Shown piece by piece: positions 1 through 14,285 of a stretch of DNA of 14,285 nucleotides (within the stretch, counting starts at the first letter, position 1; the number at the start of each line of letters is the position of its first letter). The notes beneath the pieces are model-generated. The model searched no databases and had not been told where the DNA came from. It saw nothing but the letters and a program-made list of their open reading frames with translations. The DNA is from Bellilinea caldifistulae (GTDB lineage Bacteria; Chloroflexota; Anaerolineae; Anaerolineales; Anaerolineaceae), in contig NZ_LGHJ01000025.1 of the NCBI RefSeq assembly GCF_001306055.1, positions 1 through 14,285 on the forward strand, written 5' to 3'. The position numbers and the translations under genes are program-made.

Positions 1-29
1 TAAACAGGTTTGGGATGAGGTAAAGCCCA

Positions 30-269
30 GTGGATGCACGCATTAGCCGGATTGAGTTTAGCAAGCGGCAACGTCAGGTATTGGCGTTGATTGCGCAGGG
101 TTACACGACCGGTCAGATTGCCTGTGCTTTGGGGATTAGTCGGCGAACCGTGCTTGCGTATTCTGCATATTTGCGCAGTCTGACTGGTGCGGCTAACAAT
201 GCTGGTCTGGTGCATGTTTGTTGGGAGATGGGCGTTTTGCCTTTGGATTGTGCCGGCTTATCAACGTGA
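30..269 (+). CDS. Stand-alone LuxR/GerE-type helix-turn-helix transcriptional regulator (79 aa)
   Basis: GTG start at 30, preceded by GAGG (17-20) and bounded by an in-frame TAA (21-23). The translation carries the LuxR/GerE C-terminal HTH pattern (SKRQRQVLALIAQGYTTGQIACALGISRRTVLAYSAYL). There is no receiver or ligand-binding domain; the ORF is only the DNA-binding module. Confidence 0.7.
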   Translation: MDARISRIEFSKRQRQVLALIAQGYTTGQIACALGISRRTVLAYSAYLRSLTGAANNAGLVHVCWEMGVLPLDCAGLST

Positions 270-330
270 AGCCGGAGACCGCAAGCGGAGCGATTAGCGG
301 AGCATTGCGGGCGTAGGCTTGACCTGCCCT

Positions 331-376
331 TTGCCCCCTCAGGGGGCAAGCGCATTGTGGGGGGCTTGCCCCCCAC
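331..376. repeat. Two adjacent GC-rich palindromes built from copies of GGGGGCAAG / CTTGCCCCC
   Basis: Arms TTGCCCCCT (331-339) and AGGGGGCAA (341-349) are complementary, as are GTGGGGGGC (357-365) and GCCCCCCAC (368-376). GGGGGCAAG (342-350) is also the exact complement of CTTGCCCCC (365-373), so alternative pairings exist. No T-tract follows. Confidence 0.6.
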
Positions 377-449
377 AGGGCGCAAGCTTTCAATGGCGGA
401 CATTTGCTAGCCCGCAGCCCGGAGGGCAAGGGCGGTAGCAAAGGACGCC

Positions 450-529
450 GTGCGCCACAAGAGCGGTGGTGGAGTGACGCCGTAGGCGGAACGACACCAC
501 CAAAACCCTACCTTTCCGCAGTGGCGCAC
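450..529. other. 80-nt nested three-helix stem-loop (candidate structured RNA or REP-like element)
   Basis: Three perfectly nested complementary pairs: GTGCGCCAC (450-458) with GTGGCGCAC (521-529), GGTGGTG (465-471) with CACCACC (495-501), and CGCC (478-481) with GGCG (485-488) around a GTA loop. Strand and function are unknown. Confidence 0.3.
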
Positions 530-544
530 ATTACCTTTTGGTTC

Positions 545-773
545 TGAATCATGATTCACGACTGGTGGCCAGGCTGACTGCGGTGGCCAGGCTGACTGTG
601 GCATGATTCACGACTGGTGGCCAGGCTGACTGCGGTGGCCAGGCTGACTGTGGCATGAATCACGACTGGTGGCCAGGCTGACTGTGGCATGATTCACGAC
701 TGGTGGCCAGGCTGACTGCGGTGGCCAGGCTGACTGTGGCATGAATCACGACTGGTGGCCAGGTGAATCACTA
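545..773. repeat. Tandem direct-repeat array, 52-nt unit with a nested 18-nt sub-repeat (about 4.5 copies)
   Basis: Units at 551-602, 603-654, 655-688 (34 nt, one sub-repeat missing), 689-740 and 741-773 (truncated). Unit = ATGA(T/A)TCACGACT + 2 x GGTGGCCAGGCTGACTG(C/T) + GGC. The array is entered through the perfect 14-bp palindrome TGAATCATGATTCA (545-558). No spacers. Confidence 0.95.
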
Positions 774-918
774 CGATCTACTTTATTCACTTACGGCGGT
801 GGTTGAATGGTTGCTTGCTGCTTTGTGTTAGTTTCAATCCGTTGTTCTGAGACGATTTATCGAAACTTTGTGTTTCAGGGTGAAACAGTTATTTTGCTTT
901 AATTCAATTAATTTTTTT

Positions 919-992
919 CCGTCATTCTTTACGAGCGCAGCGAGCGCGGCAATCTCCCGCAAAGCCTTGGCGGAGGCAGGGCGGGAGATTAC
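919..992 (+). repeat. Solo copy of the repeat family that forms the 5091-5775 array
   Basis: CCGTCATT..ACGAGCGCAGCGAGCGCGGCAATCTCCCGC (919-960) closely matches the first half of the array unit. AATCTCCCGC (951-960) pairs perfectly with GCGGGAGATT (981-990) across a 20-nt loop. Confidence 0.75.
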
Positions 993-1117
993 CAACGGGC
1001 AAAGCGGCTTAACAATTTTGCAAAGATTAATTTCGACCAACCTAAAATTTGTTATAAACAAGTTGTCCAGTGGTATTTTTTTTTCTCAATTTTTTCTCGC
1101 CCTTGTAGGGAAAAATT

Positions 1118-1816
1118 ATGCCCACCCTCAGCCGCACCATGCTCCTGACCGGAATTTTCCTCCTGCTGGCAGGCCTGTTCTGGCAGCCGTTGCCGGCGGT
1201 TCGCGCCTCACCGGCGGCGCAAAGCACGCCGGAGGTGGCTTGTGATGACTACAAGGTGTACCTGCCGCTGATTGCCAACGCTCCCGCCAGCCAGCCGAAT
1301 CAGCCGACTAACACCTGCCTGACCGGCGAAGAAGAAAAACTGGGCAACCTGATCAACGCCTACCGCCGCGAAAAAGGTCTGCCGCCAGTGACTTTCTCCC
1401 AATCGCTGACCCGCGTCGCCCAGGCTCACGTGCGCGACCTGTACGAAAACCGCCCCAATACCGGGGAATGCAACCTGCACTCGTGGTCGGATAAGGGCAA
1501 CTGGACGCCGGTGTGCTACACACCGGATCACAAAAACGCCAGCGGCATGTGGCTGAAGCCCAAAGAGATTACCAACGGCATTTACACCGGCTACGGCTTT
1601 GAGATTGCCTACTGGCACAGCGCCCGGGCAACCGCCGATGGGGCTTTTGCCGCCTGGAAAGCCAGCAGCGGCCACAACGCCGTGATGATTGAAGACAGCA
1701 TCTGGAAGGGGATGAACTGGGGAGCAATGGGCATCGGCATCTACCAGAATTACGCGGTGGTGTGGTTTGGTCAGCCGGCCGACCCACTGGGGAGTGCGAC
1801 CGCCTGCCCGCGCTGA
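1118..1816 (+). CDS. Secreted CAP/SCP (YkwD-like, cysteine-rich secretory protein family) domain protein
   Basis: The N-terminus is a hydrophobic signal-like segment (LLTGIFLLLAGLFW..AVRASPAA). The remainder shows CAP-domain blocks (LINAYRREKGLPPV, AQAHVRDL, GHNAVMIE, YAVVWFG). Confidence 0.7.
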   Translation: MPTLSRTMLLTGIFLLLAGLFWQPLPAVRASPAAQSTPEVACDDYKVYLPLIANAPASQPNQPTNTCLTGEEEKLGNLINAYRREKGLPPVTFSQSLTRVAQAHVRDLYENRPNTGECNLHSWSDKGNWTPVCYTPDHKNASGMWLKPKEITNGIYTGYGFEIAYWHSARATADGAFAAWKASSGHNAVMIEDSIWKGMNWGAMGIGIYQNYAVVWFGQPADPLGSATACPR

Positions 1817-1854
1817 AAAGTCCGCCCCGGCTGCTTTTCAGGTACAATTAAATC

Positions 1855-2952
1855 ATGTCCAGCCTGCCGCTCGATCAGGTCATCCAGGGTGACTGTGTGG
1901 AGGTGCTCAACCGCCTGCCGCCCGAATCGATTGACCTGATTTTTGCCGACCCGCCCTACAACCTGCAATTGCGCAACGAGCTGCGGCGGCCGGATCACAG
2001 CCGGGTGGCGGGGGTAACCGATCCCTGGGACCGCTTCGCGGACTTTGAGGCTTACGACCAGTTCACCCTTGCCTGGCTGAGCGCCTGCCGGCGGGTGCTA
2101 AAAGCCAGCGGCACGCTGTGGGTGATCGGCAGTTACCACAACATTTACCGGGTGGGTTACCACCTCCAAAATCTGGGGTTCTGGATTTTGAACGACATCG
2201 TCTGGATCAAAACCAACCCGATGCCCAACTTCCGCGGGGTGCGCTTTACCAATGCCCACGAAACGCTGATCTGGGCGCAGAAAGAACGCGGCAAGCCCTA
2301 CACCTTCAACCACCACGCCATGAAGGCGCTCAACGGCGACCTGCAAATGCGCAGCGACTGGCATCTGCCGATCTGCAGCGGCAGCGAGCGCCTGCGCGAA
2401 AACGGCGCCAAAGCCCACTCCACCCAAAAACCGCGTGCTCTGCTTTACCGGGTTCTGCTGGCAGCTTCCAACCCCGGCGATGTGGTGCTGGACCCGTTTT
2501 TCGGCAGCGGCACCACCGGCGAGGTTGCCCGATGGCTGGGGCGGCACTGGATCGGCATTGAACGCGATCCGCGCTATATGGAACTGGCGCGCCGCCGGCT
2601 GGCAAACACATCCGCAGCGCCCCCCGCCACACTGACCCAGACCAACCCGCGCCGTGAACCGCGCCTGCCGTTTGGTGCCTTGCTGGAACACGGTCTGCTA
2701 CAAGCCGGGCAAACCCTGTACTTCGAGGGCCGCACGGAACACACGGCGCTGGTTTTAGCCGACGGACGAGTCGAGTATAATGGAATGCGTGGCTCAATCC
2801 ACCTGATTGCCCGCCAGATCGCCGCAGCAGCGGTCAACGGCTGGCAGCAATGGCATTACTTCGATCCTCACGACGAGACCCTGCGCCCGATTGACCACCT
2901 CCGCCAAAAACTCAAATCCATACTGTTCAAACCAAGAGAGGAAGAAGAATGA
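1855..2952 (+). CDS. ccrM: CcrM-family (beta-class) site-specific N6-adenine DNA methyltransferase, orphan
   Basis: Beta-class motif order: DPPY first (DLIFADPPYNL), the AdoMet motif later (DPFFGSGTTG). Blocks WVIGSYHNI, NDIVWIKTNPMPNFRGVRFTNAHETLIWA and HSTQKPRALL match what I recall for Caulobacter CcrM / M.HinfI relatives. So does the roughly 80-aa C-terminal extension (PRLPFGALLEHGLL...GSIH...NGW..WHY). No restriction endonuclease candidate on either side. Confidence 0.85.
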   Translation: MSSLPLDQVIQGDCVEVLNRLPPESIDLIFADPPYNLQLRNELRRPDHSRVAGVTDPWDRFADFEAYDQFTLAWLSACRRVLKASGTLWVIGSYHNIYRVGYHLQNLGFWILNDIVWIKTNPMPNFRGVRFTNAHETLIWAQKERGKPYTFNHHAMKALNGDLQMRSDWHLPICSGSERLRENGAKAHSTQKPRALLYRVLLAASNPGDVVLDPFFGSGTTGEVARWLGRHWIGIERDPRYMELARRRLANTSAAPPATLTQTNPRREPRLPFGALLEHGLLQAGQTLYFEGRTEHTALVLADGRVEYNGMRGSIHLIARQIAAAAVNGWQQWHYFDPHDETLRPIDHLRQKLKSILFKPREEEE

Positions 2953-4733
2953 CCACCACTGATACCCGTTATCCGCAAACCCGCTGGAGCCTCAGCGACC
3001 TGTTCCCCGCCCCCAACAGCAGCGAACTGGAAAACGCCTTCCAGACGCTGGATCAACTGGTGGCCGAGTTTGAAACCTACCGGGGCAGTCTGCGCGAGGA
3101 CATTTCCGTCGAGGAATTTTTGAAAATCCTGCAACAGTTGGAGAAAATTCAAAATCTGGGGGCGCGGCTGTACGCCTACGCCGGGCTGCTGTTCTCCGAG
3201 GATACCCAGAACCAGACCGCCCAAACCCTGACGGCGCGGGTGGAGCAGTTTGTCGCCGACCTGACCAACCGCACGCTGTTTTTCAACCTGTGGTGGAAAG
3301 ACCTTTCCGATGAAGCCGCCGCCCGGTTGATGCCGGCTGCCGGTGACCTGGAATACTGGCTGGAAGCGCTGCGCCACTTCAAGCCCCACACCCTCAGCGA
3401 AGCCGAGGAAAAAATCATCAACATCAAGAATGTGACCGGCGTCAACGCCCTGCAAATGCTGTACAGTTCCATCACCAACCGCTACACCTTCAAAATTACG
3501 GTGGATGGCGAGGAAAAGGAACTGACCCGCGGTGAGTTGATGGTCTACGTGCGCGGCGCCGACCCCGACCTGCGCGCCGCCGCCTATCAGGAACTCTACC
3601 GCGTCTACGGCAACGACGGGACGATTCTGGGGCAGATTTATCAGGCGCTGGTGCGCGACTGGCGCAATGAGCAGATCAACCTGCGCAAACACCGCACGCC
3701 CATGTCGGCGCGCAATCTGGTCAACGACCTGCCGGATGAGGTGGTGGATACGCTGCTGGATGTGTGCGCCAGCAACGTAGATGTGTTCCAGCGCTACTTC
3801 CGCCTCAAAGCCCGCTGGCTGAAGATGAATCGGCTGCGCCGCTATGATATTTACGCGCCGGTTGCCAAAGCCGATAAGCACTATCCCTTCGATCAGGCCG
3901 CCGTGACCGTCTTCGACGCCTTCCGCGAGTTCGACCCGCAAATTGCCGAGCTGGCGCGGCGGGTGTTCGAGGAGAAACACCTTGACAGCGAGGTGCGCAA
4001 GGGCAAGCGCAGCGGCGCGTTCTGCTGGGGCGCCGTGCCGGAACTGACCCCGTGGGTGCTGCTCAACTACCAGGGGCGCGCCGATGATATGGCAACCATG
4101 GCGCACGAATTGGGGCATGCCATCCACTCCATGCTGGCATCCCATCACAGCGTGCTGACGTGGCACTCCAACCTGCCGCTGGCCGAAACCGCCTCCACCT
4201 TCGGCGAAATGCTGCTGATTGACCGCCTGCTCAAAAGCGAAAGCGACCCGGCTGTGCGGCGCGACCTGCTCTTCCGCCAGATTGACGACGCCTACGCCAC
4301 CATTCAACGGCAGGTCTTCTTTGCACTGTTTGAACGCGATGCGCATGAAATGGTGCATCAGGGCGCCTCGGTGGATGAACTGGCAAACGCTTATATGGAA
4401 AACCTGCGCCGTCAATTTGGGGACGCGGTAGATGTCAGCAACGAGTTCCGCTGGGAGTGGGTTTCCATTCCGCACATTTTCGATGTGCCGTTCTACGTGT
4501 ACGCCTATGCGTTCGGGCAATTGCTGGTATTCTCCCTTTATCAGCAGTACAAAGCCGAAGGGGATTCGTTCAAACCGCGCTACTTGAAAATCCTTTCGAC
4601 CGGCGGCTCGAAAGCGCCGATTAAGGTGTTGAGCGAGGCGGGCGTGGACGTCAGCCAGCCGTCCTTCTGGCAGGGCGGTTATGACTTCATCCGCCAGCAG
4701 ATAGAGGCGCTGGAGAGCATTCCGATTGAATGA
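2949..4733 (+). CDS. pepF: M3B-family oligoendopeptidase F (zinc metallopeptidase)
   Basis: HEXXH zinc motif (MAHELGHAIH) with a downstream glutamate block (ETASTFGE). The 594-aa length and helical N-terminal domain fit PepF. ATG 2949 overlaps the methyltransferase stop (ATGA) and follows GAGAGGAAGAAG. Confidence 0.85.
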   Translation: MTTTDTRYPQTRWSLSDLFPAPNSSELENAFQTLDQLVAEFETYRGSLREDISVEEFLKILQQLEKIQNLGARLYAYAGLLFSEDTQNQTAQTLTARVEQFVADLTNRTLFFNLWWKDLSDEAAARLMPAAGDLEYWLEALRHFKPHTLSEAEEKIINIKNVTGVNALQMLYSSITNRYTFKITVDGEEKELTRGELMVYVRGADPDLRAAAYQELYRVYGNDGTILGQIYQALVRDWRNEQINLRKHRTPMSARNLVNDLPDEVVDTLLDVCASNVDVFQRYFRLKARWLKMNRLRRYDIYAPVAKADKHYPFDQAAVTVFDAFREFDPQIAELARRVFEEKHLDSEVRKGKRSGAFCWGAVPELTPWVLLNYQGRADDMATMAHELGHAIHSMLASHHSVLTWHSNLPLAETASTFGEMLLIDRLLKSESDPAVRRDLLFRQIDDAYATIQRQVFFALFERDAHEMVHQGASVDELANAYMENLRRQFGDAVDVSNEFRWEWVSIPHIFDVPFYVYAYAFGQLLVFSLYQQYKAEGDSFKPRYLKILSTGGSKAPIKVLSEAGVDVSQPSFWQGGYDFIRQQIEALESIPIE

Positions 4734-5020
4734 GCAAATTGCCATACTTCGTTTACATCTTGACGAATTCGTACAACACCGTTTTATACACAGGTGTAAC
4801 CAATGACCTGATCAGAAGAATTAATGAGCATAAAAACGGAATTGGAAGTAAGTTCACATCCCGCTATCGCGTTCATAAATTGGTGTATGTTGAGTCAACG
4901 GAGAGCGTAGAGGGCGCCATTGGAAGGGAAAAACAAATCAAAGGTTGGTCGAGGGCGAAAAAGGTTTCGTTGATCGAATCGGTAAATCCTGAATGGAAAG
5001 ATCTTTCTGATGAGTTGTGA
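4730..5020 (+). CDS. Small GIY-YIG nuclease-domain protein (UPF0213-like, 96 aa)
   Basis: GIY-YIG signature YFVYILTN..LYTGVTNDLIRRINEHK plus REKQIKGWSRAKK. The start ATG overlaps the pepF stop (ATGA at 4730-4733). Composition is clearly more AT-rich than the neighbours: 22 of the first 60 nt are G+C, against 33 of the last 60 nt of pepF (hand count). Confidence 0.85.
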   Translation: MSKLPYFVYILTNSYNTVLYTGVTNDLIRRINEHKNGIGSKFTSRYRVHKLVYVESTESVEGAIGREKQIKGWSRAKKVSLIESVNPEWKDLSDEL

Positions 5021-5090
5021 TTATTTTGTAACTTCATTGCTGGCGGGAAAAACACTCTCCCGCGTGGGTGTAGACGCGAAAATAGTGTTC

Positions 5091-5775
5091 ACGTCATTGC
5101 AAGCGAGCGCAGCGAGCGCGGCAATCTCCCGCAAGACCGGCGGGGAGACCCCTCACTCCGTTCGGGGTGACATTAAGGGGTTTACGTCATTGCAAGCGAG
5201 CGCAGCGAGCGCGGCAATCTCCCGCAGAGCCGGCGGGGAGACCCCTCACTCCGTTCGGGGTGACATTAAGGGGTTTACCTCATTGCAAGCGAGCGCGGCA
5301 ATCTCTCGCAAGACCGGCGGGGAGACCCCTCACTCCGTTCGGGGTGACATTAAGGGGTTCACGTCATTGCAAGCGAGCGCGGCAATCTCCCGCAGAGCCG
5401 GCGGGGAGACCCCTCACTCCGTTCGGGGTGACATTAAGGGGTTTACCTCATTGCAAGCGAGCGCGGCAATCTCCCGCAGAGCCGGCGGGGAGACCCCTCA
5501 CTCCGTTCGGGGTGACATTAAGGGGTTTACGTCATTGCGAGCGAGCGCGGCGAGCGCGGCAATCTCCCGCAAGACCGGCGGGGAGACCCCTCACTCCGTT
5601 CGGGGTGACATTAGGGGGTTCACGTCATTGCGAGCGAGCGCAGCGAGCGCGGCAATCTCTCGCAAGACCGGCGGGGAGACCCCTCACTCCGTTCGGGGTG
5701 ACATTAGGGGGTTTACGTCATTGCAAGCGAGCGCGGCGAGCGCGGCAATCTCCCGCAAGACCGGCGGGGAGATTC
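5091..5775 (+). repeat. Tandem array of an 84/93-nt two-hairpin unit (7 full copies plus a truncated 8th)
   Basis: Units at 5091-5183, 5184-5276, 5277-5360, 5361-5444, 5445-5528, 5529-5621, 5622-5714 and 5715 to about 5772. They are near-identical, and the 93 vs 84 difference is a 9-nt internal duplication. The strand assignment rests on U-G wobble positions (see findings). Confidence 0.95.
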
Positions 5776-5849
5776 CCACCTGCACTGCACCAAACGCAGT
5801 GCGGTGCAAGCGTCGCTTCGCTCGGAATGACATAAAGAAGGAGTAATCC

Positions 5850-6512
5850 ATGTACATTGCCATAGAAGGTGTCATTGGAGTTGGAAAAACGACCCTGGCG
5901 CGGCTTTTACAGCCGCGCTTTGAAGCCAATTTGCTGCTGGAAGTCTTTGAAGAAAACCCCTTCTTGAGCAGTTTCTACGCCGACCGGGCACGCTACGCTT
6001 TTCAAACCCAAATCTTCTTCCTGCTCAGCCGTTATAACCAGCAGCGCTACAGCGTTCCCGCCCTGCTGGCCGAAGGAAAACCGCTGATCAGCGATTACAC
6101 CTTTGAAAAAGACGCCCTGTTTGCGCGCATCAACCTGAAAGGCGATGAACTGGAAACCTACTACCGCGTTCACGAAGCCCTGATTGAAAAGATTATCCCC
6201 CCTGATTTGGTGGTCTACCTGCGCGCCAGCACCAATACCCTGATGCAGCGCATTGCCCTACGCGACCGTCCCTACGAGCGCAACATGGAACGCGACTACA
6301 TCGCCGAACTCAATCAGGCGTATGATGAATTCTTCCTCTCGTCCAAACCACGTTTCCCGGTGCTGGTCATCGAAAGCGACCCGCTCGATTTTGTGCGCAA
6401 CGAAGGGGATCTGGAATGGATTGAGAACCGCATCCGGCAGGCGTTGCGCCTGTCCCCCTTTCAGCCGGAATTACCGCTGGATACACCCGCCGAATCGGGG
6501 CATTCAAACTGA
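5850..6512 (+). CDS. Deoxynucleoside kinase (dAK/dGK-type dNK family)
   Basis: P-loop IAIEGVIGVGKTT at the N-terminus, plus dNK blocks EENPFL..FY.D..RYAFQTQIFFLLSR and LRDRPYER. Strong RBS AAGGAG (5838-5843) sits 6 nt upstream of the ATG. Confidence 0.85.
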   Translation: MYIAIEGVIGVGKTTLARLLQPRFEANLLLEVFEENPFLSSFYADRARYAFQTQIFFLLSRYNQQRYSVPALLAEGKPLISDYTFEKDALFARINLKGDELETYYRVHEALIEKIIPPDLVVYLRASTNTLMQRIALRDRPYERNMERDYIAELNQAYDEFFLSSKPRFPVLVIESDPLDFVRNEGDLEWIENRIRQALRLSPFQPELPLDTPAESGHSN

Positions 6513-6536
6513 CTTTTCCCCTGAGGAGGTAAGCCC

Positions 6537-7541
6537 ATGCGCATCACCCTGGAAGCCCTGCATAAAGCCGCCCGCGAGAGCGCCGAACGGTATGCCCGCC
6601 GCGATCGCAGCCTGGTTTGTATTTACCTGACCGGCTCGCTGCTCGGCGAGGAGCCACTGCTGGGTGGAACAACCGATATTGACCTGATTTTTGTCCACAC
6701 CACCCTGCCGCCTTATCCGCGTGAAATTGTGCGGCTGACCGATGAAATCCATCTGGATATTGCGCACCTGCCGCAGAGCGCCTTCCAGCAGCCGCGCCGG
6801 CTGCGCGCCGATAACTGGATCGGGGCTTTTTTGTGCGCCAACCCGATTCCGCTGCATGACCTGGGACACTGGTTTGAATTTACCCAGGCCAGCGCCGGGG
6901 CGCAGTTTGACCTGCCGGAGTATGTCCTGCAGCGTGCTCGCCAATTCAGTGAGAATGCCCGTCAATCATGGCTGGATTTGCAATCCCAGCCGCCTCAGGC
7001 CACCCCGTTGCAAATTCACCAGTACCTCGATATTCTGGAAAATGCCTCTAACGCCATCAGCGTTTTGTACGGCACCCCGTTAACCGAACGTCGTTTTCTG
7101 CTTGTTTTTCCGCAGCGCGCCGAAGCCGCCGGGCGTCCGGGCATGGCCGCCGGACTGGCCGACCTGATTCAGGATGACCCTGCCAGCCCGGAACTGATCG
7201 AAAACCTGCTGGAACCGTGGCGAGTCGCCATGCAGGCTGCCGGTAGTCTGACCGAAAAGCCGCCGCGCCTTGACCCTGCCCGTCTGCCCTATTACGAACG
7301 AGCGATCCTGTCCCTGTCCGAGGCGTCCCCCGCCGCCGGGCTGTGGCCGATGCTGCGCACATGGACGCGTGCCGCCCGCGCCCTGCCGCAAAACCCAGAT
7401 GTCCTGACCGAGTGGCAAAATGCCTGCCGCCGACTGGGACTCTCCGGCGAAGCCCTGCCCGAACGTCTCAAAGCGCTGGATGCGTACCTGGACATTGTCG
7501 AAGAGACGCTCGACCTGTGGGGAGAACGGTACGGCGTGTAA
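6537..7541 (+). CDS. Pol-beta-superfamily nucleotidyltransferase-domain protein with a long helical C-terminal region, function unknown
   Basis: Minimal NTase pattern G-S-x12-D-x-D (LTGSLLGEEPLLGGTTDIDLIF) plus a downstream acidic residue (IHLDIAH). RBS GAGGAGG (6523-6529). The gene starts 24 nt after the dNK stop, so the two are probably co-transcribed. Confidence 0.6.
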   Translation: MRITLEALHKAARESAERYARRDRSLVCIYLTGSLLGEEPLLGGTTDIDLIFVHTTLPPYPREIVRLTDEIHLDIAHLPQSAFQQPRRLRADNWIGAFLCANPIPLHDLGHWFEFTQASAGAQFDLPEYVLQRARQFSENARQSWLDLQSQPPQATPLQIHQYLDILENASNAISVLYGTPLTERRFLLVFPQRAEAAGRPGMAAGLADLIQDDPASPELIENLLEPWRVAMQAAGSLTEKPPRLDPARLPYYERAILSLSEASPAAGLWPMLRTWTRAARALPQNPDVLTEWQNACRRLGLSGEALPERLKALDAYLDIVEETLDLWGERYGV

Positions 7542-7599
7542 TAAGGAAGGAAATCACACCCCCACAGGTGGGGAGTCTCTCTGCGGTTCTTTTTTCGTT

Positions 7600-7975
7600 T
7601 TTTCCACGTTATCTGTGGATAAATGTGGAAAAACTGTGGATAAGTTGGGATGGATGTGGAAAATTGGGGATAAATGCTCAAATTATTCTGCTTTAGCGTC
7701 AAAGTCAGCCCCCCATATATGGGGGGCAAATGTCCTGGATTGCCATATATAAAAAAGCCCGCTTTATGACGAAAATTTCGGTTTTTCAATCCACGCTTTC
7801 TCCACAGAATCTATCCCCAAAGCGGGGTAATTTTTACCACTGTATGCAGCCAACCAGATCCTCATTAACCCTATATATGGGGGATTGGTGCAATCAAAGG
7901 CGGTTTTATCCACATATCCCCAGCCCCTACTGATTCTACGAATCTCATTAAACTTTATTCTGATGGGGATAAATG
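7600..7975. other. DnaA-box cluster (candidate oriC or DnaA-titrating/regulatory locus)
   Basis: Perfect boxes: TGTGGATAA at 7614-7622 and 7635-7643, TTATCCACA at 7906-7914. One-mismatch boxes at 7624-7632, 7655-7663 (TGTGGAAAA), 7665-7673, 7964-7972 (TGGGGATAA) and 7798-7806 (TTCTCCACA). Two-mismatch boxes at 7600-7608, 7811-7819 and 7914-7922. The region is non-coding, with AT-rich and T-rich stretches. Confidence 0.6.
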
Positions 7976-8022
7976 ATTGGCAAAACAGGTCAGCCGTTCA
8001 AGAAAAAAAACAGCCTATCGGG

Positions 8023-8529
8023 TTAATCGTCATCTTCACCGTTTTCCCGTCCCCTGCTTTCCTTTTCTTCATTTTCATTCCCGAAAGTCGCTGCCAATTC
8101 CTGTAAAAATACCTGCTTTTCAGCCGCACTCAGGCGGGCTTCCGGATGTAGCGGCAGGTAAAACCACGGTGGCATTTCGCCGTTTTGGACGACTTTGACC
8201 ACATCATCGGCTTCATTCTCACGAATTCCCCATTCGGATACATTCAATTTTTCTCGCCCCTCGGTCACGTCCCGGCTGATCAGCCAGGACGCCGGCGCAA
8301 TGTTGGTATACCATGGCCAGACGGTTTGATTGCTGTGACAATCGCCGCAGGCGCGCATGAAGGTTTCACGGGTTTGCGGACTGTCCCAGTTTGGTTCGGC
8401 TACCACCGGCGGGTTGGTGTGGTCTTTGCCGATTGGCAGAAATTGAATGAAAACGAAGGCAGATAAAAGGACAAGAATTGGAATGGATACAACGGTTAAA
8501 GTTAATCGAGAAAGAGGTTTGCTAGACAT
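8023..8529 (-). CDS. Heme-binding-domain (CxxCH) membrane-anchored protein
   Basis: Single N-terminal TM segment ([21 protein letters not shown]) and a CGDCH heme c attachment motif. Blocks [30 protein letters not shown] and GEMPPWFY match the Haem_bd-type domain as I recall it. RBS GGAGA lies 6 nt upstream of the ATG, and the C-terminal tail is acidic. Confidence 0.75.
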
Positions 8530-8666
8530 CTTGATTCTCCACGAAAAAGGGGTTTATATGTCCATATAGTCGTATTCTGTGCCAAAAAGTTACGGGCAAA
8601 AAGTTTTTTCATATCCGGCTAGGTATAAAATCAACCCAACTTCGACGATCAAGTTTGCTAAATCAA

Positions 8667-8695
8667 TTGAATTTTCAAAATATTTACTTTATAAT
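8667..8695 (+). promoter_or_regulatory. Sigma70-like promoter candidate for the lipoprotein gene
   Basis: TTGAAT (8667-8672), a 17-nt spacer, then TATAAT (8690-8695). It lies 36 nt upstream of ATG 8732 in a very AT-rich divergent intergenic region. Confidence 0.4.
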
Positions 8696-8731
8696 TTTTG
8701 TAAAATTTATCATATTTAAACGAGTGTTTAG

Positions 8732-9421
8732 ATGAATATTTTAAGGCGCTTTTTGATCGTTCTGTTGACAGCCGTGGTGGCTGCCGGACTGTCCGCCTGC
8801 GCGGGAAGTGGTGATTCGGGAAGCCTGCCGGAAATTACCTCACCTATAATCCCGACCGCGTTGCCTTCCCCCGTTCCAACCCAAACAGCGCCCCCAACCG
8901 AAGTACCGTCGCCGCTCCCTACCGAGACTACTGCGCCTGATCTGGTGCTGGAACCCTGCATCATTGGACGTTGGGTGGTGGTGGATGCTGCACCGTATTT
9001 TCAAACCGCTTTCGAAGGCACGGATATTACTTACGTGGGGACAAGCGGGAATGCATGGTATCAGTTCAACCCCATGGGTCAGCTGTTTTTTGAAGCCATT
9101 CAGTTCACCCAAACTGCTTCGATCAAAGCCGGCTCGACCGATGTGCTGATGGATGTCATCATTGACGGGCCGGGATTTGCAGACTATCGTGTTGAAGAAA
9201 TCGGGAAGATCGTTTTCAGTAATGTGGCATCTTCCAGTGTTACTCTCGAAGTAGAAATTTTCGGCGAACGAGAGCTGTTGGATACGGTCGGTTTGTTTGG
9301 CGATCCCGCTGCGGCTGAGACCGTCTTCTTGTACGATTGTCAGGGCAGCAACCGCTTGCTGTTGACCCCGCCGCTGAAAAATTACGACGTCTTTCCGCTC
9401 ATTCTGGAACGCTATCCGTAG
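8732..9421 (+). CDS. Lipoprotein of unknown function
   Basis: Signal peptide with a lipobox (VVAAGLSAC followed by AGSG), then a Pro/Thr-rich linker (PTALPSPVPTQTAPPTEVPSPLPTETTAP) and a globular domain with two Cys. I recognise no family signature. Confidence 0.65.
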   Translation: MNILRRFLIVLLTAVVAAGLSACAGSGDSGSLPEITSPIIPTALPSPVPTQTAPPTEVPSPLPTETTAPDLVLEPCIIGRWVVVDAAPYFQTAFEGTDITYVGTSGNAWYQFNPMGQLFFEAIQFTQTASIKAGSTDVLMDVIIDGPGFADYRVEEIGKIVFSNVASSSVTLEVEIFGERELLDTVGLFGDPAAAETVFLYDCQGSNRLLLTPPLKNYDVFPLILERYP

Positions 9422-9514
9422 CGGCATGCGGTCAAAGCCGGCAGGGAGATTCAATCGTTGCACATGGCGTAAACTTTAATCCGCCTTTAATCGCCATGGT
9501 TTACAATCGCATTC

Positions 9515-10819
9515 ATGCTGCGAAAAATCATTCAAATCTCCTTCATCCATGTTGCTGTGGCGATGACGCTGGTGCCGATCAACAGCACCCTCAACCGGGT
9601 GATGATCAAGGAACTGGCGCTTTCGGCTGCGCTGGTTTCTCTGCTGGCGTCTCTGCCGTATCTTTTCGCTCCAATTCAGGTGATGATCGGCTCGTACTCC
9701 GACCGTCACCCAATTTTTGGCTGGCGGCGCAGCCCCTACATTGCGCTGGGGCTGTTGCTATGCGTGGCAGCTTTGGGTGTGGCGCCGTTTGCCGTGTTCA
9801 CCATGCCGCAAAACCCCGGTCTGGGGCTGGTGCTGACTTTGCTGACCTTTGCCGCGTGGGGCATGGGGTACAATCTGGCGGCGGTCAGTTATTTCTCGCT
9901 GGCTTCGGAATTGACCGGCGAACAGGGACGCAGCCGCGCCGTTGCGGTGATGATGACCCTGATGATCCTCTCGATCATCTTCACCGCTGCCACCCTCAGT
10001 CGGCTGCTGGTGGATTATTCGCCCGAACAGCTGCAAACCGCCTTTTTATATGTGGCCGGGGCAGCCCTGCTGCTGGGAATCATCGGCCTGCTCGGTTTGG
10101 AGCCGCGCAACAGCCGCCCGCTGCAAAATGTGCCGGATGAAGAACGCACCGGCTGGGTTAGCACCCTGCGGGTGGTGTTTGCCAATCCGGTGGCGCGGCG
10201 TTTCTTCTTTTACCTGATTTTGCTGCTGGCCGCCATTCTGGGGCAGGATGTCCTGCTGGAACCGTTTGCCGCCCAGGCATTCAACCTGCCGGTAGCCACC
10301 ACCACCCGGATTACCTCGATTTGGGGCACCTGTATGCTGATTACCCTGGCAAGCGCCAGCCTGCTGGAACGGTGGATTGGCAAGCGCCGGGTGGCGCAGA
10401 TCGGCGGCAGCGTTGCGGTGGTTGCATTTTTGCTCATTTCCGCCAGCGCACTGGTAGAAAACACCGGCATGTTTTACGGCGGGGTGGTGCTTTTGGGTTT
10501 GGGCAGCGGGCTGGCCACTGTTTCCAACCTCTCGCTGATGCTGGATATGACCACCGAACGGGTAGGGCTGTATATCGGGGCGTGGGGCATCGCCAACGCC
10601 CTCTCGCGGCTGACCGGCACACTTTCCAGCGGCGTACTGCGCGATTTGATCAGTCTGCTGACCGGCAATCCGCTGGCGGGTTATGTGATCGTCTTTTTCC
10701 TGTTTGCGGTGAGCCTGTCGGTTTCGCTGATTTTGTTGCGCCGCATCACCGTGCAGGGTTTTCAGGAATACAGCCGCCCGCTCAGTTTTGCGGAGCGTGC
10801 CGCTGCGCTAAATGATTAA
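9515..10819 (+). CDS. BCD (PucC/LhaA) family MFS transporter
   Basis: The N-terminal block TLNRVMIKELALSAALVSLLASLPYLFAPIQVMIGSYSDRHPIFGWRRSPYI fits the PucC/LhaA signature (TLNRVMI.ELG....P.L.AP.R...G..SD....GW.R.PY). About 12 hydrophobic segments in 434 aa. Confidence 0.8.
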   Translation: MLRKIIQISFIHVAVAMTLVPINSTLNRVMIKELALSAALVSLLASLPYLFAPIQVMIGSYSDRHPIFGWRRSPYIALGLLLCVAALGVAPFAVFTMPQNPGLGLVLTLLTFAAWGMGYNLAAVSYFSLASELTGEQGRSRAVAVMMTLMILSIIFTAATLSRLLVDYSPEQLQTAFLYVAGAALLLGIIGLLGLEPRNSRPLQNVPDEERTGWVSTLRVVFANPVARRFFFYLILLLAAILGQDVLLEPFAAQAFNLPVATTTRITSIWGTCMLITLASASLLERWIGKRRVAQIGGSVAVVAFLLISASALVENTGMFYGGVVLLGLGSGLATVSNLSLMLDMTTERVGLYIGAWGIANALSRLTGTLSSGVLRDLISLLTGNPLAGYVIVFFLFAVSLSVSLILLRRITVQGFQEYSRPLSFAERAAALND

Positions 10820-11586
10820 TCGGGATTACGCCGGCGCACGGCGCGTAAAAAGCCGGGAGTGTTCAACCCGCGCTCAAGGTAGTAGGTCAGGTAGTCCTGC
10901 ATACGCGTTTCCATTTCCTGCTGAACCGGCAGGGGGATGACCGCGCGGCCGGCTTCTGCGTAGGAACTGCGTTGAAAGTGGCGTAAAAAACGCAGGGCAT
11001 TGACCGAAACCGGCCTCGCCGAGGTGTCCTGTCCGCCGCAGCGCGGGCAGAGCACGCCCCCCAGCAGCGGCGAGAAAAACTGATCCACCGGCTGAATTTC
11101 CTCGCCGCACCCCACGCAGCGGAACAACTCCGGGCGGAAACCGAGCAGGTCGAGCAGGCGTAATTCGTAATAGCGCAGAACGGTGAAGGAGGGATGACCC
11201 TCATTCAGCCGCTGCAGGGTGACCGCCAGCAAATCGAACAGGGCGCGGTTGCCGCCTTCTTCGTAGGTGAACCGGTCGAGCAGTTCCACCACATAACTGG
11301 CGTGGGCAATCCGCTCCAAATCGTCGCGCAGGGAAAGGTAGGCCGCCAGCGTTTCGGCCTGGGTGACAATCCACAGGTCTCGTCCGCGCGCCAGCATCAA
11401 TTTGACGCGGGTGAACGGTTCCAGGTGGCCGGCTTTGCGCGAGCGCAAACGGCGCACGCCTTTGGCAATGGCGCGCAGTTTGCCTTCTTCGCGGGTATAG
11501 AGGGTCAGCAGGCGGTCGGCTTCGCCCCAGTCGTTGTGGCGCAGGACGATGGCTTCCACCCGCAGGGTACGTTCGGATGACGGCAT
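10816..11586 (-). CDS. recO: DNA repair/recombination mediator protein RecO
   Basis: N-terminal OB-fold block (EAIVLRHNDWGEADRLLTLYTREEGKLRAIAKGVRR..SR) and C-terminal zinc motif CVGCG..x..CPRCGG, in 256 aa. RBS AGGAAG lies upstream of ATG 11586. Its stop overlaps the convergent MFS gene stop. Confidence 0.9.
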   Translation of the reverse strand: MPSSERTLRVEAIVLRHNDWGEADRLLTLYTREEGKLRAIAKGVRRLRSRKAGHLEPFTRVKLMLARGRDLWIVTQAETLAAYLSLRDDLERIAHASYVVELLDRFTYEEGGNRALFDLLAVTLQRLNEGHPSFTVLRYYELRLLDLLGFRPELFRCVGCGEEIQPVDQFFSPLLGGVLCPRCGGQDTSARPVSVNALRFLRHFQRSSYAEAGRAVIPLPVQQEMETRMQDYLTYYLERGLNTPGFLRAVRRRNPD

Positions 11587-11684
11587 GGGTTCTTCCTGTA
11601 GAGTAATCGGAAAGAGACGAGGAATGTGCCACCCGCACTGGTAATTGCACCTGCACTGTAAAGGAGTTGCTTTGCACGGAATAA

Positions 11685-11738
11685 CATTAAAGGTTTTACG
11701 TCTTTGCGAGCCGCCGTCAGGCGGCGTGGCAATCTTCC
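11685..11738 (+). repeat. Solo, variant copy of the array repeat family (spans a unit junction)
   Basis: ACATTAAAGGTTTTACGTCTTTGCGAGC....GGCAATCTTCC matches a unit end plus unit start of the 5091-5775 array. The GCGAGCGC-rich core is replaced by a perfect hairpin GCCGCC-GTCA-GGCGGC (11710-11725). Confidence 0.65.
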
Positions 11739-11823
11739 TGATTATCGGGTTGGAAAAGAGCAGTTTGATCCGATTTGAGGGAATGAAAAAAATCGTATCT
11801 CCTGCCTATTATACATCCAGCCC

Positions 11824-12543
11824 CTACGGCACAAAGTGAATTGCAGGGTGAGGGGGAATTATCTGTTGAATGAAGGTGACCCAACCGATGCTGATCAACA
11901 TCAGCAGGAAAAACGCCAGCGGGTAATGCCACAAGCGTACTGGTCTGGCCTGCCGTTGTTCTGCATCCGGCAGGCAGTAAGCCGGCAAGTAGGTCATCAG
12001 ACCGTAAATCAACATCCACATGGCAAAACCACCAACTTGCTGAATGCCAAAAGCGAGAATCTCGCCCACCCAGCCCAGAAAACCGCTGATTATAAACACC
12101 GCAAACGGAGAAAAATCCAATCGGGTTAATAAAATTGCCCATCCCACAAACCAGCCGAAAAACACAATGACACTATGATGAAAGATCACGTCCCAGTAAT
12201 CGGTTGAGGCAGTGATGTAGGCTTGTCCGATTGGAACACCGAAGAAGGGCGCAAGATTGGTCATGCTCACCGCAATGGCTTCTTCGATCATCGCCATCAA
12301 AGTGGCGAACAGGATGAATTTAATCTGCCAAATGCCCGGCAGGTTAAGAATCAGGGAACGGATACGGTTGCGCTGCCAGAAAGTCAGCCCGCCGATGATT
12401 CCCACCCAGCCAGTGACCAGACCGGCAGCCATGCCGATGACGGCATTTTCAGCCGGCTTTGAGCGGGTAATCAGCCACAGGACTGAAAGCAATACCAGCG
12501 TACAGGCAAGTAAAAAGAGGACGAACAGTCCCTTGAAACGCAT
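11824..12543 (-). CDS. Polytopic membrane protein, unknown function (about 7 hydrophobic segments)
   Basis: 239-aa ORF with hydrophobic segments throughout and no family signature I recognise. There is no Shine-Dalgarno. A TAGAAT hexamer (complement of 12550-12555) lies 6 nt upstream of the ATG, so a leaderless start is possible. The start codon is uncertain. Confidence 0.55.
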   Translation of the reverse strand: MRFKGLFVLFLLACTLVLLSVLWLITRSKPAENAVIGMAAGLVTGWVGIIGGLTFWQRNRIRSLILNLPGIWQIKFILFATLMAMIEEAIAVSMTNLAPFFGVPIGQAYITASTDYWDVIFHHSVIVFFGWFVGWAILLTRLDFSPFAVFIISGFLGWVGEILAFGIQQVGGFAMWMLIYGLMTYLPAYCLPDAEQRQARPVRLWHYPLAFFLLMLISIGWVTFIQQIIPPHPAIHFVP

Positions 12544-12604
12544 GATTAAATTCTAGCAGGGGTTGATGAGGAATAGAGGCGGAGCAGGACAAAGGATGGA
12601 AAAC

Positions 12605-12638
12605 ATAAAAAAGCCTGCCCGTGGGGAGGCGGGCAGGC
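12605..12638 (-). terminator. Rho-independent terminator after the rhodopsin gene
   Basis: Perfect 9-bp GC-rich stem GCCTGCCCG (12613-12621) / CGGGCAGGC (12630-12638) with an 8-nt loop. On the minus strand it is followed by a T-run (complement of AAAAAA 12607-12612). It begins 21 nt after the stop at 12660. Confidence 0.75.
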
Positions 12639-12659
12639 AGGCTGGCTGGAGTTCTCGCA

Positions 12660-13469
12660 TCAGTTGATGCTGACCATTTCCACTTCTTTTTCGGCGGAAG
12701 TGGTTATCCAGCCTTCGGCTTTGCTCAAATCCATGGCCACTTTGGTTACCAGCACACCGTAGATGACTTTGGAGGTAATATCGGCCACGGTGTAAATGGC
12801 CTGCCGCAGCACAACACCGTCAGCAGTCGGCAGGATAGCCGGCATGATGTAGGCAAGCGGGTAAATCGTCCACGCAATCAGAAACAGCCAGCGGATGCTC
12901 TTCATGGTTGCGGCAGCGGATGCCGGCATGCGCGGCAACGCTCGGCCGATTTCCACCCACACATAATAAAGCAGGATGATGTAGAAAACGGTGCTGATGC
13001 CGCCCCACGCCCAAAGCGCGGTCAGGTTGGTTACTTCGTAAAACTGGCCGACGTAACCGAGCAAAATCATCGCCACACCCGAACCGACAAAGATAATGCC
13101 CAGACGGCGACTGGTGGCTGCACCAAGCCCGAGGATGACGACCAGTTGCAGCAGGAGCATGGGGACGTCAATCAACCAGTTCAGGTAACGAAAGCCGTTG
13201 GAGAAGACGCCCTCACTGCGCACAAATTCGCCATTCTGGAAGGTAAAGGTGGTTTGCCAGCTTTGCCATTGGGCAAACAGCAGCAAAAAGGCAGAGACCA
13301 TCACAATTCCGCCCAGCACCGAAGCGATGCGGTAGCGGGGAGCCACCTCGCGCATGGTGGTCATAAAGTAGACAAACCCGGCTGCCATCGAGGCGAAGCC
13401 TAAAATCAAAATGTGGGCAACCAGTTGCCATTGTACAGGGTCATAAGTGAGCATATTCTCAATGTTCAT
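12660..13469 (-). CDS. Microbial (type 1) rhodopsin with NDQ motif, predicted light-driven Na+ pump class
   Basis: Seven hydrophobic helices. Helix C FRYLNWLIDVPMLLLQL gives N97 (AAC, 13181-13179), D101 (GAC, 13169-13167) and Q108 (CAA, 13148-13146), all checked by hand. Helix G ADITSKVIYGVL supplies the Schiff-base lysine K234 (12770-12768) and D230. It aligns well with my recollection of Krokinobacter KR2 (YRYLNWLIDVPMLLFQ, ADVSSKVIYGVL). Confidence 0.85.
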   Translation of the reverse strand: MNIENMLTYDPVQWQLVAHILILGFASMAAGFVYFMTTMREVAPRYRIASVLGGIVMVSAFLLLFAQWQSWQTTFTFQNGEFVRSEGVFSNGFRYLNWLIDVPMLLLQLVVILGLGAATSRRLGIIFVGSGVAMILLGYVGQFYEVTNLTALWAWGGISTVFYIILLYYVWVEIGRALPRMPASAAATMKSIRWLFLIAWTIYPLAYIMPAILPTADGVVLRQAIYTVADITSKVIYGVLVTKVAMDLSKAEGWITTSAEKEVEMVSIN

Positions 13470-13484
13470 GGTTCTTTTTCCTCT

Positions 13485-14222
13485 CTACCGATAAAATGAT
13501 TTGACTTGTTGATATGCTTCTATTATTTGTCTGTACAATGCTGTCTGTCTAATGATTGTATAATCTTTTGCGGGTGATTTGCTTTTTATCAGGGCATCCG
13601 GCAGCGGGCCAGGTAATCTACCCCCTGACGGGAAAATTTTTGTCCAATCTGTTCGGCGGTTAAGGGCGCTGCCGTTTTCCGTCGCCTGCCAGTTTTCAGG
13701 GTCGAACCGCCACTTTCCGATTAATTCGCCGGCAGGGTTGAATGCCAGTAGATGCTGATAGCGTTCGTCCAGTGAGTAGATGATCTTGCCGTCATCACTC
13801 CAGGCCGGGGGGAGAAAACTTCCCTCGTCCAGTCTTTGAAGTTCACCGGAATTAATTTCCACCACAAATGTGCTGCGTTCTTTTTCATCTTTCAGGAAGC
13901 CGGTAACTGCGATCGTATTCTGAAAGGGTGACCAGACCGGCGCGCTGGGGTTGTGGATGACTGAAATTCTGGCAATCCGATCAATTTGACGCAGATCCAC
14001 CCAGCGCAGTTCTGTTTTGATGCTCCCCGGCGGCTGGTAGAGGTAGGCAAACTGGTTGCCGTCCGCCGACCTGCCGCAGTAAAAACCGGCCGAACCAATA
14101 TCGAGCATCCCTAAAAAGCCGAGAGGCGAATAGATATCAATCCAATAGCCGCTGGACGGAGAGAGTTGAAAAATCAAGCGTAATACGCCGAGCAGGCTGT
14201 TTGAGGGGTGGAAAAGCCGCAC
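13485..14222 (-). CDS. PD40/TolB-like beta-propeller repeat protein (start uncertain, possibly truncated)
   Basis: Repeated PD40-like strings (RSADGNQFAYL, APVWSPFQNTIAV, PPAWSDDGKIIYS). The ORF opens with GTG 14222; an alternative ATG lies at 14108. No convincing signal peptide. The stop TAG (13487-13485) is only 15 nt upstream of the rhodopsin ATG. Confidence 0.5.
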   Translation of the reverse strand: MRLFHPSNSLLGVLRLIFQLSPSSGYWIDIYSPLGFLGMLDIGSAGFYCGRSADGNQFAYLYQPPGSIKTELRWVDLRQIDRIARISVIHNPSAPVWSPFQNTIAVTGFLKDEKERSTFVVEINSGELQRLDEGSFLPPAWSDDGKIIYSLDERYQHLLAFNPAGELIGKWRFDPENWQATENGSALNRRTDWTKIFPSGGRLPGPLPDALIKSKSPAKDYTIIRQTALYRQIIEAYQQVKSFYR

Positions 14223-14285
14223 CCGATGGGGTATCCACCCTAAAATAAAGGGGCTGTGTATCTTGATTTGACCTCTTCACCTCCA

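Follow-up and report, generated by a model that had tools for sequence, protein, structure and literature searches.

The window analysed here, a contig of 14,285 bp taken in full (C21), belongs to a genome of 3.66 Mb that is assembled in 31 contigs and 99.7% complete. It encloses a non-coding gap of 481 bp (7542–8022), matching the roughly 480 bp of the original prediction, between two convergent genes that both end there. The left flanking gene (6537–7541, plus strand) encodes a protein of 334 amino acids without a Pfam match, and the right one (8023–8529, minus strand) a Haem_bd domain protein. The left gene is followed on the plus strand by an element (7559–7603) in which a C5/G5 hairpin, CCCCCACAGGTGGGG, kept in relatives with changes in the loop, is joined by a second terminator-like hairpin (7568–7584) and a T-rich tail, and which is probably the terminator of this gene. 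At the other end of the gap a terminator-like hairpin with a T-run (7992–8015, minus strand) belongs to the right flanking gene.

Between these bounds the gap is crowded with DnaA boxes, and a re-scan confirmed every box coordinate given in the prediction. Perfect boxes start at 7614 and 7635 (TGTGGATAA) and at 7906 (TTATCCACA), one-mismatch boxes at 7624, 7655, 7665, 7798 and 7964, and two-mismatch boxes at 7600, 7811 and 7914. Only 40 perfect boxes occur in the 3.66 Mb of the genome, three of them within 300 bp at this locus, and the cluster, described at the outset as dense, ranks first genome-wide with eight boxes per 400 bp (three perfect) against at most four elsewhere; no comparable second cluster was found in the 99.7%-complete assembly. 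On the left, five boxes in the TGTGGATAA orientation form a head-to-tail array on the plus strand (7614–7673, with starts at 7614, 7624, 7635, 7655 and 7665), next to a degenerate inverted box at 7600–7608. The spacings within the array are 10, 11, 20 and 10 bp. Of the helically phased run that had been described here, the five same-orientation boxes and their 10–11-bp steps stand, but the slot at 7645 is unfilled and leaves a step of 20 bp, since its 9-mer carries four mismatches and is not conserved in relatives. Boxes 7614, 7635 and 7655, separated by 21 and 20 bp, or two helical turns, are kept throughout the genus and also in two other families; the intercalated boxes 7624 and 7665 are confined to the four closest species. 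Further to the right lies a conserved co-oriented pair on the minus strand (7798–7819), formed by TTCTCCACA at 7798 and CTATCCCCA at 7811, which shares its orientation with the boxes of the module described next.

A basal unwinding system has been defined as a DnaA box or tandem pair of boxes, a spacer of up to 16 bp (most commonly 13) and at least three DnaA-trios, which carry a central A on the bound strand and have the consensus 3'-GAT-5', equivalent to 5'-CTA-3' on the box strand (PMC8287927). All of these parts occur in order at 7906–7944. The tandem boxes (7906–7922, minus strand) consist of the perfect TTATCCACA followed directly by TATCCCCA, and are invariant in the genus and present in 41 species. 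They are succeeded by a GC-rich spacer, GCCC (7923–7926), so that the first trio begins 12 bp past the perfect box. The trio array itself (7927–7944, minus strand) reads CTA CTG ATT CTA CGA ATC on the top strand and 3'-GAT GAC TAA GAT GCT TAG-5' on the bottom strand, that is, four consecutive trios and then two more, the fifth unit (CGA) being without the central T. Beyond it lies a short AT-rich stretch (7945–7963, about 19 bp with about 76% A+T), where the strands are predicted to open first (DUE), in a slot that is AT-rich in 41 of 41 loci. The region is closed by an inverted box on the plus strand (7964–7972, TGGGGATAA); most relatives have an inverted box, complete or partial, in this slot: the closest species share TGGGGATAA, and others carry TGAGGATAA, ATGGATAA or weaker forms.

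The module at 7906–7944 thus fits the published definition (PMC8287927), and a search of the 3.66 Mb with a pattern stricter than that definition (no more than one mismatch in the box, a spacer no longer than 16 bp, and four or more consecutive NTN trios starting with CTA and including two or more CTA) returned this module as its single match. Since the module conforms to the definition and is unique in the genome, the GATTC-TAC-GAATC motif, originally noted as a pair of GANTC sites, is to be read as a piece of the DnaA-trio array. The unwinding site therefore likely lies to the right of the 7906 box, at 7927–7963, and neither in the T-rich tract (7587–7603) nor at 7740–7790, the two places to which attention had been drawn. 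The former sits behind terminator-like hairpins, has no trios on its side, and is more likely the hairpin tail of the upstream gene. As for the AT-rich DNA claimed at 7740–7790, the most AT-rich 25-mers of the gap are found instead at 7670–7695 and 7933–7965.

Comparative analysis extends this picture well beyond the genus. BLAST recovers the gap from eight further species of the genus, relatives whose contigs bear Bellilinea names, and from two additional families of the order, and the columns conserved across them are the boxes, a palindrome discussed below, and the block of box pair, spacer and trios. A 21-mer core, CCACATATCCCCARCCCCTAC, is present in 41 GTDB species, mostly Anaerolineae (Bellilinea, Thermanaerothrix, Anaerolinea and others), and in all 41 loci it is followed by CTA-rich trios, in relatives CTA CTA CTA CTA and similar strings, and by AT-rich DNA. 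Box pair, GC spacer and trio core are identical to the letter across Chloroflexota, Firmicutes and Eisenbacteria. The dnaA gene lies next to the core in Lachnospiraceae (Faecalimonas), in Selenomonadaceae, in an Ardenticatenales MAG and in two Anaerolineales lineages (OZ252150 and G022), and there the same element is thus the classical dnaA-linked origin. It lies apart from the core in the genus of the window, in T. solaris and in isolate SSC4, by 500–700 kb where the distance is measurable. Judged by this comparison, the putative origin has become separated from dnaA in the present lineage, and its elements in the gap are intact and under strong purifying selection.

The lack of dnaA in the window, noted from the beginning, finds its explanation in the position of the gene on another contig (C31:111077–112477). 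An origin upstream of dnaA was considered and is ruled out by the complete absence of DnaA boxes from the 1 kb that precedes the gene; C31 has almost wholly negative skew, without an origin-type turn. A further caveat, namely that the genes to the left of the gap point towards it, has no weight. Gene-strand bias in this genome is close to nil, so that gene orientation is uninformative either way.

GC skew is strong (|0.06–0.10|) over most contigs of the genome, and C21 belongs to a weak-skew, GC-rich domain (56–62%) that also comprises C1:100–260 kb, C2, C3, C14 and C15. Within C21, which is only 14 kb long, the cumulative skew has a weak minimum at 8273, near the gap, and the local skew change at the gap is not significant (88th percentile, within the top 12% of positions). 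Synteny with the relative G006 puts C21 between C14 (reversed) and C3, and the C14–C21 junction is also backed by a repeat copy split over both contig ends. In the joined sequence a broad skew trough spans 40–95 kb with the candidate origin at 60 kb, a compatible though not a sharp placement. Skew in this fragmented assembly is therefore compatible with oriC, but not decisive. Better resolution comes from four relatives whose contigs are long or whose chromosome is closed: there the cluster is found at or near the GC-skew minimum, in T. solaris approximately so. The closed chromosome CP059258, sampled sparsely, has negative skew at 468 and 702 kb and positive skew from 936 kb to 3.28 Mb, with the minimum of the cumulative skew over ±200 kb at 873 kb, the core at 886 kb and dnaA at 1,588 kb. 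On a 1.11-Mb contig of a member of the same genus (G003) the skew declines steadily over 200 kb to the cluster at 948 kb, reaches a plateau and then rises; in G013 the cluster, at 62.7 kb, almost coincides with the minimum at 61.8 kb; and T. solaris has a trough at 116–172 kb and a local minimum where the cluster lies (172.8 kb), its dnaA being 500 kb away on the same contig. Another contig of T. solaris, taken as a control, displays strong monotonic skew at 50% GC. The neighbourhood of the origin combines weak skew with heavy rearrangement between species, so that in the present genome skew places the origin no more closely than within a domain of a few hundred kb.

Taken with the unique unwinding module and the conserved core, the skew minima of the relatives support the leading interpretation of the original prediction, and we consider that the gap at 7542–8022 is very probably the chromosomal oriC of this Bellilinea-like Anaerolineales (Chloroflexota) genome. 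Its most durable rival holds that the gap is a former or secondary origin, an oriC by descent in a strain that fires mainly elsewhere, for example near C1:~205–212 kb, where the skew turns from negative to positive more smoothly and cleanly than on C21, though no box cluster is found there. Blocks homologous to C1:195–224 kb lie 4–90 kb from the cluster in three relatives, and the switch could accordingly mark an earlier place of the origin. However, compared with G006 it also falls where neighbouring synteny blocks change orientation, as would be expected of an inversion scar, and the proximity of the blocks together with this change makes the switch plausibly a rearrangement scar in a scrambled origin-proximal zone. 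With no DnaA-box and trio module near C1:212 kb or anywhere else, and with all origin elements in the gap apparently intact under purifying selection, a displaced site of firing is very unlikely.

An alternative raised early on, that the cluster is a DnaA-titrating or -recycling locus of the datA/DARS kind which does not itself fire, the true oriC being elsewhere, could draw on the absence of both dnaA and dnaN from the window, on the separate skew switch at C1:~212 kb, and on an assembly in 31 contigs, in the gaps of which an origin could hide. It does not fit a locus with a unique and conserved unwinding module, complete with box pair, spacer, trios and AT-rich DNA, since datA and DARS are without such a module. 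Related lineages and Firmicutes carry the identical core next to dnaA, the cluster coincides with skew minima in relatives, and the 99.7%-complete assembly holds no other box cluster or candidate origin; a titration locus is, on this evidence, scarcely credible. The chance that the gap is instead a DnaA- or NrdR-regulated promoter or a small-RNA locus is negligible: NrdR-type boxes, of which the gap contains candidates, do normally overlap promoters (PMC12176259), and the second of them (7742–7757) holds a TATATA/TATAAA string, but both flanking genes end at the gap, sigma-70-like promoters number zero against 1.3 expected in 7542–8022, a search of the same interval against Rfam gave no meaningful match, and the neighbouring genes differ from species to species around an element that stays intact. 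Almost certainly, then, the locus is an ordinary element of its kind, a canonical DnaA origin equipped with a basal unwinding system.

Less ordinary are the palindromes that lie between the left array and the unwinding module. Box 1 (7710–7725) is a perfect 16-bp palindrome, CCCCCATATATGGGGG, and is followed after a 16-bp spacer by a degenerate box 2 (7742–7757, TTGCCATATATAAAAA), whose CCA.ATAT core is conserved in relatives; a third palindrome-like site (7868–7883, ACCCTATATATGGGGG) is weakly conserved in its slot. The operator of NrdR is a 16-bp palindromic box, usually present as two boxes 15–16 bp apart (PMC12176259). The sites in the gap are read as NrdR operators because their 16-bp length, AT centre and 16-bp spacer match this definition, a likeness strengthened by an identical copy at nrdR-nrdJ. 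They differ from the published NrdR consensus in their arms, which are C5/G5 and not ACAC/GTGT, and from the operators of ribonucleotide-reductase promoters in that they lie within a replication origin, where there is no gene for NrdR to repress.

Exactly three copies of CCCCCATATATGGGGG occur genome-wide, in the oriC candidate, in the nrdR-nrdJ promoter and in the dnaA promoter. The second, at C29:28257, lies about 105 bp upstream of nrdR (C29:28152–27715), with a class II RNR-like gene next to it, and is conserved in six genomes, one of them from another family; the third lies about 300 bp upstream of dnaA. When the pattern CCCCNATATATNGGGG was searched in nine relatives, all matches fell in the origin (seven species), 5' of nrdR-nrdJ (six genomes) or 5' of dnaA (two), and a reversed control pattern gave zero matches in the same nine. 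In T. solaris a 17-mer, CCCCCATATATAGGGGG, stands upstream of dnaA, and a one-off variant of it occupies the matching slot of the origin. It is thus fairly likely, judging by architecture and distribution, that the palindromes at the origin, dnaA and nrdR-nrdJ are NrdR operators. They cannot be regarded as nrd-only sites: tandem NrdR-type boxes at C14:34484/34515 and at C2:65590 precede small unknown ORFs and a LuxR-type HTH gene, not nrd genes, and therefore either the regulon is wider than the RNR genes or the binder is not NrdR alone. That in Bellilinea and its closest relatives NrdR binds not only its own nrdR-nrdJ promoter but also the tandem operator in oriC and the one copy of the dnaA promoter is put forward tentatively, and whether its presence at the oriC palindrome would really affect initiation we hold to be somewhat doubtful.

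A second possible regulatory input is methylation. Some 5 kb upstream of the gap the window encodes a CcrM-family N6-adenine DNA methyltransferase (1855–2952, plus strand; Pfam N6_N4_Mtase and RAMA), with DPPY at residue 32, FFGSG at residue 215 and a C-terminal RAMA domain, which matches Caulobacter CcrM (6PBD) over its full length with E 2.8e-130. No nuclease or restriction-enzyme domain is present in the two ORFs that flank it (a CAP-domain protein and an M3 peptidase), and from these two neighbours it would appear to be an orphan methyltransferase. Of 30 genomes of the order, 25 carry one copy of the orthologue, whose identity tracks relatedness, which suggests vertical inheritance, and in G006, G013, G016 and G004 it is encoded 4–6 kb from the box cluster. 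CcrM homologues have already been recorded in 'some Chloroflexi' (PMC3973325).

This gene gives a real basis to the earlier idea of a methylation-controlled origin, and the four GANTC sites on which that idea relied (7573, 7807, 7932 and 7940) are all real. Their number in the gap is only marginally in excess of expectation (four against 1.28, P = 0.04), in a genome in which GANTC words are depleted by about 25%. Conservation in relatives is restricted to 7932 and 7940, inside the trio array, and the conserved CGANTC found there is explicable by trio constraints alone. These two sites, if read by the CcrM orthologue, might add a methylation input, though methylation control of the origin, possible but unsupported, appears to us rather unlikely.

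By analogy with the basal unwinding system of Bacillus subtilis, initiation at this locus would begin with the binding of DnaA-ATP to the tandem boxes at 7906–7922, from which DnaA would oligomerise rightwards on one strand of the trio array (7927–7944), so that the AT-rich stretch at 7945–7963 would open and the helicase be loaded there. The left array (7614–7673) and the middle pair (7798–7819) would build a larger DnaA scaffold that assists and regulates opening. The tandem NrdR-type operator (7710–7725 and 7742–7757), placed between this scaffold and the module, probably lets NrdR, an ATP/dATP-sensing repressor, bind the origin, and the CcrM orthologue nearby might methylate the two GANTC sites of the trio array.

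Characterised origins offer several points of comparison, none of them from Anaerolineae, for which no experimentally characterised origin was found in the literature. With oriC of B. subtilis and C. difficile the locus shares a tandem of boxes pointing the same way, of which the upstream one matches the consensus better, a 12-bp spacer that includes a GC cluster, and trios of the CTA type on the strand of the boxes, with AT-rich DNA behind them. The trio string of C. difficile, CACCTACTACTATTACTACTA, looks the same as the array described here (PMC7561715), and the 21-mer core is identical in dnaA-adjacent origins of Lachnospiraceae and Selenomonadaceae. Unlike those of B. subtilis and C. difficile, however, the present origin is flanked not by dnaA and dnaN but by unrelated convergent genes, dnaA being on another contig; it is continuous and not bipartite, and the fifth unit interrupts its array of trios.

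In E. coli, oriC carries two opposed DnaA sub-complexes on phased boxes, and the Bellilinea locus resembles it in having one arm of closely phased (10–11 bp) head-to-tail boxes, boxes of the opposite orientation adjoining the unwinding element, and a location apart from dnaA. It differs in the order and number of boxes and in an unwinding element that is based on trios and not on 13-mers, and neither IHF/Fis sites nor GATC/SeqA clusters were identified in it. Cori of Caulobacter crescentus also lies away from dnaA, is subject to CcrM/GANTC methylation and contains regulator sites within the origin. The present locus shares with it a conserved CcrM orthologue, GANTC in the origin, a predicted embedded site for a regulator other than DnaA, and a position not beside dnaA, but has no CtrA sites, and its GANTC enrichment is marginal (P = 0.04).

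For the Anaerolineae, the locus provides a precise model of an origin, with its boxes, trios and unwinding site, and indicates that an origin can drift 500–700 kb from dnaA within one order. It also anchors the orientation of the replichores in a fragmented genome where skew alone misleads. The sole part that could be new biology is the NrdR-type operator common to oriC, dnaA and nrdR-nrdJ; to our knowledge no circuit that places this regulator inside an origin has been described for NrdR. Should such a circuit exist, the deoxynucleotide pool would gate initiation directly at the origin, and the supply of dNTPs would be tied to origin firing.

The origin neighbourhood is a rearrangement hot zone with oriC at its centre. 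Comparison of window 1-14285 and contigs C1 (195-250 kb), C2, C3, C14 and C15 with the corresponding contigs of relatives' genomes (G006:C5, G013:C3 and G004:C16) revealed that the ~200 kb surrounding the origin consist of dozens of blocks shuffled and inverted between species, whose DNA identity is still 75-90%. One repeated module has at least three copies (C14:34484-35054, C2:65559-66129 and window 1-400), the third being divided between the ends of contigs C14 and C21, the latter being the window itself. Its order is tandem CCATATATGGGGG boxes 31 bp apart, followed by an 82-84-aa ORF and then a 78-79-aa ORF of the LuxR-type HTH class, and one copy lies ~7.5 kb to the left of the origin.

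The unwinding core's 21-mer, CCACATATCCCCAGCCCCTAC, recurs without a mismatch in Lachnospiraceae/Faecalimonas, Selenomonadaceae and Candidatus Eisenbacteria (fetched loci L041-L043, L058, L060, L066 and L069). In these matches a non-coding origin core is conserved letter-perfect between phyla. At the left edge of the gap, the hairpin CCCCCACAGGTGGGG (window 7559-7574) is conserved across the genus, its C5/G5 stem being retained and its loop varying, a pattern resembling that of the origin palindrome.

Genes in the vicinity of the origin encode a deoxynucleoside kinase (window 5850-6512), a PucC-family transporter (9515-10819), RecO (10816-11586) and a microbial rhodopsin (12660-13469), the last of these unexpected if the organism is Bellilinea caldifistulae, an anaerobe. 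A CcrM orthologue combining N6_N4_Mtase and RAMA domains (window 1855-2952) is conserved throughout the Anaerolineales by vertical descent, and neither of its flanking ORFs showed a nuclease or restriction-enzyme domain. All four GANTC words are ~25% rarer than expected in the genome.

Across the whole genome (C1-C31) the between-contig GC gradient is large. GC content is about 58-64% in the domain of weak skew that surrounds the origin (C1, C2, C3, C14 and C21), strong skew (0.06-0.10) appears only beyond this GC-rich domain, and at the terminus-type skew switch (~44 kb on C7) GC falls to 40-42%. An equivalent contrast exists in T. solaris between contigs C2 and C3 of its genome (G032), at 60% versus 50% GC. 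Separately, a single 10-kb bin of C23 (~240-250 kb) has a GC skew of +0.23 in an otherwise negative-skew contig.

A perfect 16-bp palindrome identical to the origin copy, which was read as an NrdR-type box, is located ~300 bp upstream of dnaA (C31:110775-110790), and no DnaA boxes were found in the upstream region carrying it. Since the palindrome is present there and DnaA boxes are not, dnaA may in this organism be controlled by NrdR instead of by autoregulation.
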